Shown here: positions 776 to 33,569 of the stretch, piece after piece
Layout of the letters: each line of letters starts with the position of its first letter
Numbering within the stretch: the stretch's first letter is position 1
Source: Hydrolagus colliei
Lineage: Eukaryota
NCBI GenBank assembly: GCA_035084275.1
Contig: CM068755.1
Span: 14,074,001-14,138,000, forward strand
Length of the DNA: 64,000 nucleotides
Direction of reading: 5' to 3'
Notes under the pieces: model-generated
What the model was told of the DNA's origin: nothing
Database searches by the model: none
Seen by the model: the letters and a program-made list of their open reading frames with translations, nothing else
Made by a program: the position numbers and the translations under genes

Positions 776-878
776 GGTTTTACAGACAGTCCTCATTATG
801 GTGAGCACTTGAATGACAGTCGATTAGGATCCCATGAAGGATTGTCACCAACACCGTTCATGAACTCCAGTCTAATGG
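776..878 (+). CDS. TCF12: TCF12 exon ~5 (103 nt, phase 0-1): [35 protein letters not shown]
   Basis: ttcctcccctag acceptor, G|gtaagt donor, peptide matches the HEB N-terminal region. Confidence 0.95.
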
Positions 879-9791: not shown

Positions 9792-10487
9792 ATTTTATTA
9801 TTATTAGGAATGTTGAACAAGTGCACTTGTCTATAGTGTGGTGCCCGAGTAGAATAAGTAAATTTGCTTCTGGTGTTTGAAGGGGTTAAAATCATGGGAG
9901 GCAACTGAAGCTTGCTGCTCTACCCTGTGGTATTATTCTTTCACTTTGTTGGGTCAGACCGCAAGATGAATTTGTTTTACAATATCCTTTTATGCCTTTC
10001 CGAATCATTTTAATTTGCCGTGTTCTCCTTGCGTACAAGTCGGCGTGCGTAATGTTTTGGATACTTGACCTTATCTACATCCCTTGTCGTGCTGTCGAAT
10101 CGTGGCTTTGTTTTGGGTGGATTCTTTTAAAACGGCGATTTAACACCGAACTGAGATTTTACGTGATAATAATAGTGAATGGAATAAACCCACCTCCCCC
10201 CCCCCCCCCACCCTCCCGGGCTCGGTGCAGTGCGTACTACTTTAGGCTGATGTTGCAGCCACTCTTGCGTGCTGCGGTTAGATTACAATAATATACAGTA
10301 AATTGCCTTGCTCTCATCAGTACAGTACTTTATTAATATGCACAACATGACCATTTCCAGTGGAAGGTTATTAGTTTGCTAGTTTGTATCCTCCAGTGAA
10401 TGAAATGATGTGTGATTATGAAGTCATCAGGCATGGACCAGTAAAACTCGAGAGAGCCTCCCTCTTTCTCAGGTCCTCAGGGTGCCA

Positions 10488-10643
10488 NNNNNNNNNNNNN
10501 NNNNNNNNNNNNNNNNNNNNNNNNNNNNNNNNNNNNNNNNNNNNNNNNNNNNNNNNNNNNNNNNNNNNNNNNNNNNNNNNNNNNNNNNNNNNNNNNNNNN
10601 NNNNNNNNNNNNNNNNNNNNNNNNNNNNNNNNNNNNNNNNNNN
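10488..10643. other. Assembly gap (156 N)
   Basis: Run of n characters. Confidence 1.
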
Positions 10644-12759
10644 AGTGAATAGCTTGTGTTGGCTGGAGGATAGTAACAGTGAGAGGCTCTAAAGGCCAAA
10701 TTAGTCTTTTCCTTGAAACAGCGCAGCTCTCTGGAAAGGTCCAGGCCTTATTTTATTTGCATTACTCGTATGGTAAAGTAATTGCAGTCTGCTGGTCTGG
10801 GAAGCAATTTTATGGCACAGCAGACCAGAGATATTAAAATTCTAAACCGTGCTCGTGCACCGACCGAGATGGGCAGGGATGCGGGGAAAAAAATCTGCGG
10901 TTTTCAAATACTGTTTCTGTGGTGATTTTTCTAACCGAAATTGAAGTTTTTTTTATTTTCCGCACTAAGTTTCACCGGGGAAGGAGATGGGTGGGTGCGA
11001 CGTCCTTTGGATCGCTGGCCGTTGTTTAAAAAGATATTTGAGGACGCCAGCCGCCTCTCTTGCTTTACGCAGTATTGCTTAATCCTGGTCCATCCTCATA
11101 ATTGATCTATTCATTCCACCTAATGACTAATTATATATCACAGCATATCAGCAGTCGCATTCATCATCATAGAATGTAATAATCAATGACATTTCAACAA
11201 AGGAAAAAATAAATATGCAAATAAGGACTCATTAACATTTGCATGAGGAGTTTGAATAATCGTGTTGCTGACAAGGCTGTAATTAACAGAAATTGATGCT
11301 GAGATCAGGATTTGATCGTGTGTTTTCTCAGCATTTTATTGTTGTCACTGCGGGGGCTGAAATGAAGTTCTGCTCTAGTTGTATTTCCAGATATGCTTGA
11401 TGTGAGGTCTGCTCCCAGGTACACTAGACTTCTGGGAGTGCTTAATGTTATCTTTGACCTGCAAATAAAATAACCATGGCGGATGAGTTGCAAATCCCTT
11501 GTCATTAAAATATTCATCTTAAATTTCAGGAGAAATGTGTTTGAAATATTAGTTTATTTCAAATAGTTTTATTGGTTTGCATGTAAACATTGCTTTTATT
11601 GTCCAGGGTTGGTTTCCTCTCGCTCGTAAATGGACTGTTGCTGTGAAACTCCAATCTGCCAGAAATTCTTTCGCTGTTCTCTGGTTCTGAACATTTGTAT
11701 AATTTTGTTAGGTGTGGTTCATTCGCTGTAGATAAAATATGAAACATCCTTTGGAAAAAAACATTTAATTGGACAACATTCCTTGCCAACAAAACTAGCA
11801 GTTTAACCTTTATTTTACAATGCTTAGCAAATCTGGCTAGAAGTCGCAAACGCCCTGTTTTAGTCAGTTATTATTGCTATTAAATATCAGTTTCTTGGAA
11901 TCATAGAAATGTGTCTAATGTACTTAATTTATCTAGTATAATATGAACCATCTGCATTTTTACCCAGTTTCGCTACACGATTGCTTCCCTTTTCCTGTTC
12001 CGTTTTCTCTTATTGCCATAGATAGTCACAAAAATGCATAAAACACAATAAAGCTGTTTATGTCAGTGTTTTGGATGACTATGAGTGCTGATTGTAACAA
12101 GTTTGAGAAATTTCCTTTGTTGAATGTGTACGGTGCCATCTGGCTCAACATGGAACATTAACTTGAACAAGGATAATGGATTGTCGTGTATGGATACAAT
12201 TTCGCCTCTAGCTTCACTATAATTCATTCTGGTCAGGGAATGCTGGTTCGAAGGAAGGGATGCAGGTTATTTCCATATGTACATACCAATAGATTTATTT
12301 TCCTTCCTTCCCACTCACTCTCTCTCTCCCTCTCTCAAAGGAAAGGAAAGTTTCAATGTATTCCACAGATGGGAAGATGTTGGATAGTTAATTGGCTGTT
12401 TCGCTTCAACTAAATTCACTTGTGTCCAAGTGTTTTAACGTCGGAATGTATTTCTTGGAAAAGTATAATCAAATCGGTTTGAGGAAAATGTATATTGCTA
12501 TTTATACATTAGTAGCTGTGGCAATGTAGATTTTTTTTTTAATTGTTAAATACGGATTTGTAACCTAAGTAGATTTAAAATATGCAGTTGGGTTAAACAA
12601 AATAGCAAAAACCTTCCCCCAAAAAAACTTTGGGGATTTGCTAAATTTACAGTATTTAAAACAAAGTCATTAAAAAGAGAGAGAAGTTTCAATGAGGCCA
12701 AGGGGATAAGGACACAACACTCGTACAGAACACAACATTCTGTCTTTACAGCAGGTTTG

Positions 12760-12975
12760 AATCACAAATAGTTGGTTTCAGCCAGTGCAGTGTTTGTGGG
12801 TCATTTACAATTACCCTCAGTGCCCCTGGGTTAGGGAGTGGGAAATGACCCAGATGATTCTTATCAAGAGACTCCCATGTTTGCAAACATTGGATGCTAA
12901 CAGATTTGGGTTCAGCTGTGATGTCCATCCATGGTGGAATAACCTGTCAACTCTTTATGTCAAGGATCATGTCAA
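12760..12975 (+). mobile_element. Ancient AmnSINE2-like SINE relic (a weaker third copy at ~62270-62390)
   Basis: tacaattaccctcagtgcccctgggttagggag..ttcagctgtgatgtccatccatggtggaataacctg; shares blocks with 24410-24690. Confidence 0.6.
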
Positions 12976-15194
12976 AATGAAAAAAAAACACACACACTCG
13001 GGAGATATATTGGAGGGTGTTTTAGTGTCTGGAAAAGTTTCCCTGTGGAATGAAAATCAGTCAAATGCCTCCAGGAGAGGAGGTAAGAAGCAAACATGAA
13101 CTTGTTACGTTAAAAGGAACAGTTTAGAGGAAATAATTTTGATTTCGAAATACGCTTCATTCATTAGGTGTACAACAGAAACTCATTCACTTCCATTACC
13201 TGACATCCACTCACGCCATTTCTAGGCAACTTCAGGGGTGTAAGATTAACTTTACTACGTTTGAGGGAAAGTCTTTGACCAGTTTTTTTTAAACTATAAG
13301 GTATGTGTTCTTTTTCAATTCCTACTAACCAACCTGGAGTCTTGGAAGCGGAGTTTTCTTGAACAGTTTATAACGCAAATTTGGAGCCACTTAGCTTCCC
13401 ACCTCTTTCCTTATGGCTATTGAGAAATATAATGCTTTGTGTGTCTTGGCTTTCATTCACACCCTGCCCGCAAAGGAAGAACTGGAAATCTAGTGGGCCA
13501 CTATTTCAAAGAACAAGCAAAAACTGTTCAACAGGAGAAAATATTTGTATGTTTGCATTGTACAGATGTTTTCCAACATCCAATAATAGTTGAAATCTAA
13601 TCGTAGGGCTGAGCAGATAAACTTGACTGTCTAACACAGTTTGGCAGAATGCATGTAAAACGCATGTGAAATCATTTCATGTTTTCCCACTGAGAGCGGT
13701 CGCATCACTCATTTAGCCAGCTGTTTCTACAGAGATTCCGAATAATATCAGATGTCAGCTTTTTTTTAGAGGAACGCAAAAGATCCTAGATGATGAGCAC
13801 CGACGTGAAGCCTGTCTATTTCCTTGCTTGAAGCAGGAGTGACAGTATTATCAGGCTGAGCAAAGATGGTTAACTGTTGGATGAGATTTGAAACAACTTT
13901 TCATGTTGCAGTAGAATTTTTATTTTGGCAACTTCACACCCTCCTGTCAAGGATATGTCATTTTGTTCTGTTGAGTGGCACTACAAGAACCATGCTCTGT
14001 CTTAACTCATTAACTGATTGTGTAGGAAATGCTGACCAAATAATTGGATCGTCTCAATTTACCTCTATTGTGATGCTGTGAATTCACTAAGAATGTGATC
14101 TATGGTGGTTATGTGTATTATGATTGATAGGAAAAAAAGCTTTTCAAAAGCAGAAAGCAACAGTGATTAGAACGGAACTGTTTTTAAAAATGGTATAAGC
14201 TGCATAAAAGTGCAGTACATTAAATAACTACACCTCACATGTTTAGTTTTTCAAGACTTGCTTCAGTGCACTGCCACCTTTGAAGACCCAGTTTCAAGTA
14301 CAGTACTGTAGATTACATTCAGCTGCATTTACCATCACCTGGCAAACTAAATGCTGGTGGAAATTTGAATTTAGATTTAGTGGCAATTTTAATTAATGTG
14401 GGTAGATGGTAATAGATTGTGTGAAAACACCATGTAAATTGGCTCTTAAAATGTTGGCCTTTTATAAAAATGCTAAGATAGTGTTTTAAAAAAAAGGATA
14501 CTAGGTTATTGCAGAAAGGTATCACACAGTTGGAGCATGAGCCAGTTGCATTTGTGTTTGTTGCATTGCAAATACAAATATAAAAGCTTCCAACGTTATT
14601 TTAAACACTCTGAGAAGTAGCTCTGATTCTAAGTGGAAGGAATTCAGTTTTGCACATCTGGTTTCTTTAAATTTTTTGTCAGATTTCTGCTCAACTGATT
14701 TATTTGAAACTTAACACAAACAAACACAATAAATAAAATTACATTTATAGAGCGCCTTTCATGGTCGGGATAAAATCTTAATTTGAATAAAATCCAACTT
14801 GAGTTTGCCTTCATTGGACATTTGCTCGATTGCTTTTGGCTAAAAATCACCTTTTTTCTTTTAGCAACCCTTGATATTTAAAAACTGTAGTCACGCAGGG
14901 TAGAATGGAGCTAAGATGGAGTGCGGAGTATGATGAGGTAATGGTTAGGTTAAAGTCATGATTACAGATCACCGACCTCTGTAAGGATGTCTTAGTTTAT
15001 TACTAATCTTGCTGTGTGTTGTACTTGGCGATTTTCCTGTGCTGCTTTCCCATTGTTAATAGCTGAATGAGTAATTTGGCTCAAATAGGCTGGGTGGAGG
15101 GTGCATTAGTCCAGCAGCTGTGCTTACTGGCACGGGAAAGTTAACCTCTTCATTGCAGTCAGGTTGAGTTTGGAATATTTATTGGCAATACAAA

Positions 15195-15410
15195 TTGAAG
15201 ACTTGCCTTACAAGCATGGGATCTGTGTTCGAATCCAGGCAGGTCAGGGCGAAACCTTGGGCAAGTTTCCTTACTCCCCACAAAAAACACAATAATAAAA
15301 TTGGTCATTTCAATCCACGACTGTTTGTGGGGACACTGCTGTGCGCAATTAGCTACCGGGTTTCACCCACAAATTTATCAAATGCAAGGCAAGGATGATG
15401 ATTATTATTA
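15195..15410 (+). mobile_element. Internally deleted SINE, same family
   Basis: B box gttcgaatcc, ggtcagggcgaaaccttgggcaag, body; tail region collapsed. Confidence 0.8.
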
Positions 15411-16483
15411 AGACTAAATGCAAATCCAACATTCACAAAAGTTTTAAAAAAAAAAAAAATTCTTGACAAGTTAGTATGCATCGCATTTCTGAAATATGAT
15501 GCTGGTAAATACTAAATTTAGAAATCTTCACATTTATATGGTGCAGTATTTGGAAGTACAGGTGTTGTTCTGCGGTTGCTTTGATTGTGGCAAGCTTTAC
15601 AAACTTTTAACATATTTGTAGCACAGCGTTGTTTGGATTTAGCATAGAACTGTTGGTGAGAGGAAAATGCAGATTTTTCAAGTGGCAATTGTTTCCCTCA
15701 ATGTTAAGCCTGTGCCATATTTATTGCTTTAATATTTGGGTTGAAATTCGGCCCCCGCAAACAGTTTTTAGAAAGAGATTGATGCATTTGATTTTGTGTG
15801 TGGCTGGTTGCTACACAATTCCTCTTAAAGAGCTAATTATGTATGATTTACTAAATAAAAAGCTATTCTTTTGGTTAAAAAGGTGATTTGTAATTTTTTT
15901 TGTTTGCAAACAAGAGACAGCATCTCAAATGTTACAAACACGTGATAAATAGATTGTGATCAATAAAATAGCTTTTTTCATTGCCAAACACATGGTTTCC
16001 GTGAGGTTTATTCATTTTTGAAGTTGTATTTGGAAAGAGTGAAAGTGAGTGTTAAGCAACTGGGAGGTAATAAAAGTCCGTGATACATTAATGTTAATCC
16101 TGTAATTGTTAAGACAAACCATGTTAATTCCTTTATGCACCGAAATAAACCAGAAAAATGATTTCTGCCAAACTTGAACCACAGAAGGAAGTGATAGTGG
16201 CAGTTAAATCCCTTTTCCTCAATTGAACTAACTGGAGGTTTCTCGAAACATTTTGTTTTATGGATTTGCAGTCTTCAAAAGTGAAAAGCTGTATTCATTC
16301 TTTGTACGGTAAGAGGAGCAGCTGCCTCCAGCCTGTGTTTAAACCTTCCAGCCTCTGCGGCTGAGTTTATTTGTTCAGATGAGCGATCTTGTGGCTTCCG
16401 CTTCTTATTTTGACCCTATTTTGCAACAGCAAGTGGCAGAGTGTGACCAGATCCAGCAGGTGAATAGGGTCAGAGGTCCAAGC

Positions 16484-16554
16484 TGTGTGTGTGTGTGTGT
16501 GTGTATATATATGTACACACACAGATACATACACACATATAGGCACACACACAC
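16484..16554. repeat. Compound (TG)n-(TA)n-(CA)n quasi-palindromic microsatellite
   Basis: Direct reading. Confidence 0.85.
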
Positions 16555-18660: not shown

Positions 18661-18960
18661 GTGGAGTCCTGTAACTCAGTGGTTAGAGCACTCACCTTAC
18701 AAGTCAGAAACCTGGGGTTCGATTCCAGGCAGGTCGAAACCTTGGTCAAGTTTTTTTACTCCACACGCCTAATAATAGTCCTTGAAAAAAATTGGTAATT
18801 TCAATCCACGACTGTTTGGGGGACACTGCGGTGCGCAATTGGCTGCAGTGTTTTGCCTATAAATATACACTCAGTTCACTTGTACAATATATTCTGTGAA
18901 GTGCTTTGAGACATCTAGAGGATGTGAAAAGCGCTATATCACAGAAGGATTACTATTATT
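18661..18960 (+). mobile_element. Full-length young tRNA-derived SINE with L2-type 3' tail
   Basis: A box TAACTCAGTGG, B box GGTTCGATTCC, body shared with other copies, (TAT)n tail, TSD attacatt at 18653 and 18958. Confidence 0.9.
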
Positions 18961-19870: not shown

Positions 19871-20187
19871 GTGGAGTCCTGTAGCTCATTGGTTAGAGCC
19901 CTCGCCTTACAAGCGTGAGACGTGTGTGTTGAATCCAGCCAGGTCAGGGCGAAACCTTACTCCACACGCCTAATAGTAATCCCTCCCAAAAAACACAATA
20001 ATAAAATTGGTAATTTCAATCCATGACTGTTTGTGGGGACACTGCTGTGCGTAATTGGCTGCCGTGTTTCGCCCATGAATATACAGTTAATTCACCTTAC
20101 AGTATATTCCGTGACGCGCTTTGAGACGTCTAGAAGATGTGAAAAGTGCCAAATCAAATGCAAGGATTATTATTGTTATTATTATTA
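19871..20187 (+). mobile_element. Full-length SINE, same family, ending ~60 nt before the exon 6 acceptor
   Basis: tRNA head, shared body, (TAT)n tail, TSD tgagcattt/tgagcgttt at 19862 and 20188. Confidence 0.9.
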
Positions 20188-20247: not shown

Positions 20248-20312
20248 GGAAAGTTTCAGAAAGAGGGCCACGGGCACCATATGGCAGAGACCCAGGAATA
20301 TCAGTGTGCCAA
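20248..20312 (+). CDS. TCF12: TCF12 exon ~6 (65 nt, phase 1-0): GKVSERGPRAPYGRDPGISVCQ
   Basis: tttttag acceptor, CAA|gtaagt donor; similar to HEB GKTSERG...RD.G...CQ; phases fit neighbours. Confidence 0.9.
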
Positions 20313-23938: not shown

Positions 23939-24074
23939 CCCAGTATTCTTCGATCAGAAGCTGGAATAAGCAGCCCTGTAACTTTGCCATCTTCAGGAAA
24001 GCCTGGAACTGTGTGCTTTCCTTTTACTGCCACAAATCCACGCAGAAGACCACTTAATGACTCTACGGCACTTG
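23939..24074 (+). CDS. TCF12: TCF12 exon ~7 (136 nt, phase 0-1): [46 protein letters not shown]
   Basis: tctttcag acceptor, G|gtttgt donor; SGKPG and RRRPL motifs (first half of the bipartite NLS). Confidence 0.92.
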
Positions 24075-32739: not shown

Positions 32740-33500
32740 TGTTACTTTCTCGGAATAAAGCCACCCAAAACCTTCATTTTCGCAGGCCCCTGGTTGTAAA
32801 AGCACCAAGCACTGAGCTGACATGCACTGTTTTGATGGTGGAGTGGGACTGCTTTGTTTATGTGGTTGCCCTGTCTCTCTTTCCTTTCTCTGCGCTGTAG
32901 ATGGAACACCACAGAGGTCACTTTTCTCTTTTGTTAAGTGGTGCTTTTGTTCACGTCTTTATTTACATTCTTGGAAGTGACTAGGGACAGAGGGACAGAT
33001 GGCAGTGTAGCCAGAAGTGCATCAGACAGTCTTTACTGCTACAAGTGTGCTAATTTAATTAAAAGAAAAACAGATTAAACGCAGACTTAGCTGTACTTGT
33101 TTATATTTTAGCTTCTGCTTCATTTGAAGAAGTTAACAGCCTAAAACTAGAAGTGTTACAGAATAGTTCCTTTAGATTTCCACAGATGTTTTTCTACTCC
33201 CTGCCCTCGTTTTAATATTTCTGCCTAAACGTTTCAAAATGGTCCTTTTTTTTTCTTGCTGTTGACATGGCTTCAATAACTGAATATGGAGTACAGCCAA
33301 TAAAGCTTAACTTCTTTCCCCGCCCCCACTACTATTGCGTAGAGTGGTTCAGCCCTACTTTGCATAAGTTCTTTCTGAGTAGATCCATGTGTGGAAAGAT
33401 ATTACTCAAGGAATTAGTCTGCCTGAAATTGTGCAGATGAATGTGTCGCACTGTTAAGTGCACATTTGCTGATCTCTCCGCACTAGATTTAGCCAGCAAC
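32740..33500 (+). promoter_or_regulatory. Putative HEBAlt internal promoter and 5' leader
   Basis: CCAAT at 33297 and GC box CCCCGCCCCC at 33318, ~180-200 nt before the ALT ATG; STAT-type TTCnnnGAA at 32747 and 32968; RUNX TGTGGTT at 32861; CAGATG E-boxes at 32996, 33183, 33434. Confidence 0.65.
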
Positions 33501-33569
33501 ATGTATTGTGCTTACACAGTGCCTGGTATGGGAGGAAATTCTCTTATGTATTACTACAATAGGAAAACG
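33501..33569 (+). CDS. TCF12: HEBAlt alternative first coding exon (ALT domain): MYCAYTVPGMGGNSLMYYYNRKT
   Basis: aacATG start, 23 codons, ACG|gtaagt phase-0 donor joining exon ~9; YYY motif typical of HEBAlt/TCF4-A. Confidence 0.95.

Follow-up and report, generated by a model that had tools for sequence, protein, structure and literature searches.

The TCF12 locus and its TCF4 paralogue

The window analyzed here is a stretch of 64,000 nucleotides from Hydrolagus colliei (contig CM068755.1, positions 14,074,001 to 14,138,000 of the forward strand), and it contains the TCF12 gene of this holocephalan from exon 5 through the bHLH exon. A preliminary description, made from the sequence alone, had identified the gene as TCF12 and placed a candidate additional first coding exon inside intron 5; the gene and the position in intron 5 are confirmed. 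Exon 7 is 98% identical to that of Callorhinchus milii TCF12 and 73-80% identical to those of sharks and rays. TCF12 is known in long and short forms, HEBCan and HEBAlt (PMC3208247, PMC3346973), and the first coding exon of the latter served as our positive control. The exons needed for the argument are the following.

776 to 878, plus strand: TCF12 exon 5, which ends in phase 1.
20248 to 20312, plus strand: TCF12 exon 6, 65 nt, which needs entry in phase 1.
23939 to 24074, plus strand: TCF12 exon 7.
33501 to 33569, plus strand: HEBAlt first coding exon, which, like the region 32882-33094, matches the TCF4 gene of the same animal.

For comparison with the paralogue we took 120 kb of the TCF4 locus of the same genome, which lies on another chromosome (C1). 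This comparison recovered the HEBAlt exon (E 1e-11; 83% DNA identity to TCF4) and the region upstream of it (E 1e-9), in addition to exons 5, 7, 8 and 9. Three non-coding blocks, at 10361-10485, 11125-11344 and 12116-12187, also matched and are collinear in the two genes. No tile from 15.4-16.5 kb, which contains the candidate, matched TCF4; short exons can escape such a comparison, since exon 6 was also missed.

The candidate region is an island of unique sequence between a repeat that ends at 15386 and a microsatellite that starts at 16484. A comparison of the window against its own sequence and against 120 kb from another chromosome showed no repeat match over 15387-16483, and the only match of 15900-16500 in the genome is its own position. 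The non-repeat setting claimed for the candidate is thus borne out.

The candidate frame at 16260 and its expected frequency

The signals on which the candidate was proposed are as follows.

16186 to 16193, plus strand: ETS-like motif AGGAAGTG; GGAAGT occurs 16 times on the plus strand of the window.
16260 to 16308, plus strand: candidate frame, ATG with 16 codons and one G, phase 1.
16309 to 16314, plus strand: donor GTAAGA, 8.7 bits, compared with 8.6 for the exon 5 donor and 10.1 for the HEBAlt donor.
16319 to 16462, plus strand: four CANNTG boxes, starting at 16319, 16376, 16430 and 16457.

Each of these elements is present in the sequence. The ATG at 16260-16262 has G at +4 and opens sixteen codons (MDLQSSKVKSCIHSLY) followed by one G; the frame ends at the donor ACG/GTAAGA (16308/16309) in phase 1, which suits exon 6 at 20248, 3.9 kb beyond the end of the candidate. 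When spliced to exon 6 the candidate keeps the frame open through exon 7, and an ETS-like site does lie upstream, with GGAAGT at 16187. The reading of 16260-16308 as a first coding exon is weakly supported.

The frequency at which such frames arise by chance bears directly on this reading. On an approximate donor matrix, eight plus-strand donors of intron 5, that of the candidate among them, reach its 8.7 bits or more, and two of the eight end an ATG frame in phase 1. The minus strand has seven donors at that score and two phase-1 ATG frames. One hundred Markov shuffles of the intron gave means of 6.6 donors, 0.98 frames of at least 8 codons, 0.61 of at least 16 codons, and 0.10 of at least 16 codons that also have G at +4. 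Expressed per shuffle, a frame of at least 16 codons arose in 47%, and one that also has G at +4 in 9%. Such frames are thus found at about the rate expected by chance, and the ATG-to-donor pattern alone is unremarkable.

The other phase-1 frame of the plus strand is an ATG frame of 79 codons at 12845-13082, which ends at the best donor of intron 5 (GAG/GTAAGA, 10.1 bits) and sits 0.7 kb behind the third of the conserved blocks. On anatomy it is as good a first-exon candidate as the frame at 16260.

The surroundings of the start codon are no more favorable to initiation. A favorable context has a purine at -3; the candidate ATG has T there, together with its G at +4, while this genome has A at the canonical, HEBAlt and TCF4-A starts. 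Six further ATGs lie upstream within 15900-16259 (360 nt). No TATAAA, CCAAT or GC box was found in 15400-16500, and CpG dinucleotides number 3-6 per 300 bp there, the median of the window being 5.

The same evidence bears on the proposal that the region harbors an internal start with a non-coding or otherwise coding first exon, for example one reaching to a second donor after 16459, in the manner of TCF4 exons 7a and 8a-d. The unique-sequence island, its two strong donors, the ETS-like motifs at 16187 and 16395 and the four E-boxes would suit such a start, and many TCF4 first exons are indeed non-coding (PMC8519306). However, the density of E-boxes behind the donor is equalled or surpassed elsewhere in the window, CpG stands at the median, and the region has no match in the paralogue; moreover, four of the eight top donors of intron 5 close an ATG frame of some phase, so that a frame of this kind is ordinary. 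We regard an internal start of this type as very unlikely.

Anatomy of a cassette exon

The preliminary description had noted, as an alternative, that a CAG acceptor ending at 16271 would produce a frameshifting exon of 37 nt. This acceptor is present, and the surrounding features form a more complete anatomy than that of a first exon.

16228 to 16232, plus strand: CTAAC, resembling the branch-point consensus, about 40 nt before the acceptor.
16249 to 16271, plus strand: T-rich tract and CAG acceptor, scoring 9.3 on an ad hoc scale on which nine real acceptors score 4.5-11.1.
16272 to 16308, plus strand: cryptic exon of 37 nt, whose inclusion would cause a frameshift and a stop in exon 7.
16460 to 16465, plus strand: second strong donor, CAG/GTGAAT, which with the 16271 acceptor delimits an exon of 188 nt with an internal stop.

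The candidate ATG lies within the T-rich stretch that precedes the acceptor at 16271; because of this position, and because of the T at -3, the 37-nt exon is the better-built object of the two. Intronic pseudo-exons and poison exons are characterized by a branch site, a pyrimidine tract, an acceptor, a strong donor and a length not divisible by three, all of which are seen here. The acceptor and donor are complete, and the premature stop that inclusion would give lies well upstream of the last exon junction. Nonsense-mediated decay is known to act on stops located at a long distance before the last junction. Poison exons that function are as a rule conserved, and they can be detected once this decay is blocked.

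A further ATG frame of 27 codons (16379-16459) closes in phase 0 at the second donor and would fit exon 7 or exon 9.

We assessed how unusual this arrangement is. Acceptor-donor pairs of this strength, when CTAAC is not required, occur at a shuffle mean of 1.5 per intron, with five on the minus strand, and the rest of TCF12 together with TCF4 contains 22 comparable pairs, none of which has CTAAC. When CTAAC is required, the site is the only one of its kind in intron 5, with a shuffle mean of 0.02 under strict and 0.31 under loose settings; these odds are flattered, as the thresholds were set at the values of the candidate itself. CTAAC is present at one of the nine real acceptors. The branch-site anatomy gives modest support to a poison exon, short of a demonstration.

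If the exon were a regulated poison cassette, splicing would insert 16272-16308 (or 16272-16459) between exons 5 and 6, and the resulting frameshift would send HEBCan mRNA to nonsense-mediated decay. HEBAlt, which starts downstream, would be spared, and the cassette could thereby tune the HEBCan/HEBAlt ratio. This proposal draws on an acceptor as strong as real ones with CTAAC at about -40, on the presence of two of the eight best donors of intron 5 behind that acceptor, and on the fact that both products are out of frame or contain a stop. Against it are the post hoc thresholds, the similar pairs elsewhere that lack a branch site, and the missing counterpart in TCF4. The study PMC12699894 deals with exon 15 of TCF12 and with an SRSF7 poison exon. 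Such a cassette is unlikely on present evidence.

The protein and transcript record

We searched for the candidate peptide in 224 TCF12 proteins, a set assembled from the best 120 of 3130 matches together with 15 of 24, 15 of 44 and 15 of 34 members of three large clusters. The set covers sharks, rays, twelve C. milii models, coelacanth, monotremes, turtles and birds, and is nearly devoid of placental mammals and teleosts. The peptide occurs in none of these proteins, the twelve C. milii models included, with a best local score of 24. Taken with the chance-level pattern and the T at -3, this result speaks against the original proposal of a coding first exon.

Exon 6 is contained in 183 of the 224 proteins, and in 165 of these it is preceded by exon 5. 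The sequence before exon 6 is otherwise a seven-residue insert in Narcine (10), sequence upstream of exon 4 (5) or Met only (2), and in a single catshark model exon 6 carries another short start; such isoforms are therefore annotated in the group. The C. milii models that begin Met-Gly-Lys fit a Met at the end of exon 5, and intron 5 contains only one ATGG/GT. No convincing position within intron 5 was found for the N-terminal pieces of the catshark and Narcine models.

An alternative N-terminus that precedes exon 5 in ray and catshark models was considered and set aside. It corresponds to an upstream exon (at a window position of about -23433) that the models translate in a shifted frame while skipping the next exon, and is probably an annotation artefact.

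Wider searches gave similar results. The 45-residue open frame around the peptide shares three words with no protein of 80-2000 residues, which is a weak test. In zebrafish, none of the 14 TCF12 transcripts in the S2 table of PMC6561585 encodes a product of the expected size, which we estimate at roughly 600-630 residues. A HMMER search with exon 7 over 1.84 billion representative sequences returned six matches, five of them TCF12 fragments that are uninformative about a start before exon 6. When metagenomes were scanned for a 19-base donor pattern, the one match fell on a gene-dense contig that does not look vertebrate and has no further similarity, and we take it as chance. A decay-targeted exon may exist unseen by these searches, because protein databases cannot show one.

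In the literature, mostly the non-subscription part, we found no description of a TCF12 first exon or poison exon in intron 5, although supplements or browser annotations could list one; the accessible text of PMC9666405 likewise holds nothing relevant to an exon in this intron.

Comparison with TCF4 exon 7b

TCF4 has first exons, 7a and 7b, at the equivalent junction (PMC3137626; Sepp, 2011), as the preliminary description had asserted, and the SCLHTL stretch that it mentioned is genuine, being found in human TCF4-G. The N-terminus of TCF4-G is encoded by human exon 7b, which lies less than 100 nt before exon 7 (PMC3137626). On the first-coding-exon reading, an internal promoter at about 16.1-16.2 kb and a coding first exon would yield an AD1-less, NLS-containing HEB as the TCF12 counterpart of human TCF4-G.

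Human TCF4 7b-I/TCF4-G enters at the same junction, the exon homologous to TCF12 exon 6, and in the same phase 1; it and the candidate are both predicted to give an AD1-less, NLS-containing product with a similar hexapeptide (PMC3137626). The two also differ. Human 7b can be retained and lies close to exon 7, whereas the candidate is separated from exon 6 by kilobases; 7b is supported by ESTs and RT-PCR (PMC3137626), whereas the candidate is known from sequence alone. HEBAlt/TCF4-A (PMC3346973) is a short internal first coding exon in an E-protein gene that removes AD1, as the candidate would be. However, HEBAlt is conserved across vertebrates and between the paralogues, has A at -3 and is present in many of the retrieved proteins, and the candidate has none of these properties.

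The likeness between SCIHSL of the candidate and SCLHTL is confined to one hexapeptide, with four identities and two conservative changes as judged by eye against the human sequence. Its rough chance is 0.001 for this frame and 0.02 over ten comparable frames, with 1.8 such likenesses expected over the whole intron. When set against the 7b-like site of the chimaera's own TCF4, the candidate region falls short of the shuffle mean, its score being reached in 199 of 200 shuffles, and the peptide stands at shuffle level against the 7b-like frame (997 of 1000 reach its score).

The right phase, the strong donor, the TCF4 exons at the equivalent junction with SCLHTL in TCF4-G, a hexapeptide improbable for a single frame, and the catshark model with its short start on exon 6 count in favor of a coding first exon. 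The chance-level pattern, the poor -3 context and the absence from the 224 proteins and from the zebrafish transcripts (PMC6561585) count against it, as does the 7b-like position 3.8 kb upstream that is described below. In addition, mouse cannot make TCF4-G, as one added nucleotide breaks its frame (PMC8519306; Nurm, 2021). We consider a TCF12 counterpart of TCF4-G at 16260 to be distinctly unlikely.

Conserved elements at 10.4-12.5 kb

The three non-coding blocks shared with TCF4 lie in the same intron as the candidate, some 4 kb upstream of it.

10361 to 10485, plus strand: conserved non-coding block shared with a TCF4 intron of this genome; 0 of 200 shuffles.
11125 to 11344, plus strand: conserved non-coding block shared with a TCF4 intron of this genome; E 3e-18.
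12116 to 12187, plus strand: third block shared with TCF4; 0 of 200 shuffles, and the top of a sliding scan of intron 5.
12446 to 12529, plus strand: ATG frame of 27 codons at the position that matches the 7b-like ATG of TCF4, ended by a stop and with no phase-1 donor.

The enhancers hs357 and hs623 of TCF12 are paralogous to hs376 of TCF4 (PMC3595034), and a third element, CNE3, occurs together with them inside TCF12 (PMC6561585). We take 11125-11344 to be the orthologue of hs623 because an hs623 mutagenesis primer (PMC6138899) matches 11263-11305 by eye. From its order, 10361-10485 is likely part of the hs357 orthologue. The block at 12116-12187 is likely to be the CNE3 of zebrafish and paralogous to the region upstream of TCF4 exon 7b. 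The likely orthologues of this enhancer cluster (PMC3595034, PMC6138899, PMC6561585) therefore occupy 10.4-12.2 kb, and the candidate downstream of them shows no detectable conservation in the paralogue. The stretch 10361-11344, which likely contains the hs357 and hs623 orthologues, can still be aligned within this genome with C1:151968680-151970990 of TCF4.

In TCF4 (C1:151982571-151982990) an ATG frame begins 286 nt behind the third block, and it is likely the 7b orthologue because it carries M-K-x-I, Q, I-I and A-R in the order of TCF4-G, as judged by eye. This frame lies 24 kb from exon 7 and has no phase-1 donor within 800 nt. In TCF12 the corresponding ATG at 12446 sits 310 nt behind the third block, and by eye the DNA of its frame is closer to human 7b than that of the candidate. 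The correspondence between 12446 and 7b is a lead only, as the likeness between the two chimaera copies is not significant beyond the shared core (29 of 200 shuffles). The 7b-like site of TCF4 aligns with the window at 12.1 kb and not at 16.3 kb. The TCF12 counterpart of 7b is thus likely to be found at 12.1-12.5 kb, 3.8 kb upstream of the candidate, and the earlier suggestion that the candidate itself is this counterpart, which also finds no match in TCF4, is not supported. It may be that the CNE3 enhancer of TCF12 and the 7b promoter region of TCF4 are paralogues.

Interpretation

Taken together, our data indicate that 16260-16308 carries real sequence signals and is probably not a functional exon. 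The reading we prefer, with a probability of about 55%, is that 16272-16308 is a chance pseudo-exon in TCF12 intron 5 that is normally skipped. The spliceosome would join exon 5 to exon 6 as a rule, rare products that include the 37 nt would be cleared by nonsense-mediated decay, and selection would not maintain the site. The ATG at 16260 would then be an incidental triplet in a pyrimidine tract. Such a pseudo-exon would be of little consequence, as introns contain many skipped sites of this kind.

The alternatives would carry more weight. A real first exon would define a third N-terminal class of HEB besides HEBCan and HEBAlt, and TCF4-G, now a curiosity encoded in human and broken in mouse, would look ancient. 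A conserved poison exon would offer a means of adjusting the HEBCan/HEBAlt ratio of a gene that is dosage-sensitive. A broader proposal is that an undescribed start in intron 5, either the candidate at 16260 or an exon under the control of the 7b-like element at 12.1-12.5 kb, produces an AD1-less, NLS-bearing HEB, and that this isoform class is older than the duplication of TCF12 and TCF4, as HEBAlt/TCF4-A is; we hold this to be distinctly unlikely. If the element at 12.1-12.5 kb did drive such an exon, the neural "enhancer" CNE3 would be an ancient internal promoter. The likely correspondence of the third conserved element of TCF12 to the TCF4 7b promoter region provides a lead that can be tested across vertebrates.

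Additional features of the two loci

An Rfam scan of 800-26500 found just two tRNA-like heads, at 18665-18737 and 19875-19947; both lie inside multi-copy repeats and are likely tRNA-derived SINEs. The TCF3/E2A locus was not found in two protein searches of the genome, and may be absent from the assembly or lie outside the scored candidates.

The non-coding block at 32882-33094 precedes the HEBAlt ATG by about 400-600 nt. It matches C1:152060494-152060703 upstream of the TCF4 MYCAY exon, and is likely to represent an ancestral promoter element shared by the two exons. In TCF4, the bHLH exon has an inverted partial copy about 0.5 kb behind it, at C1:152100102-152100230 amid simple repeats, which reflects either an inverted duplication that arose locally or an error of assembly.
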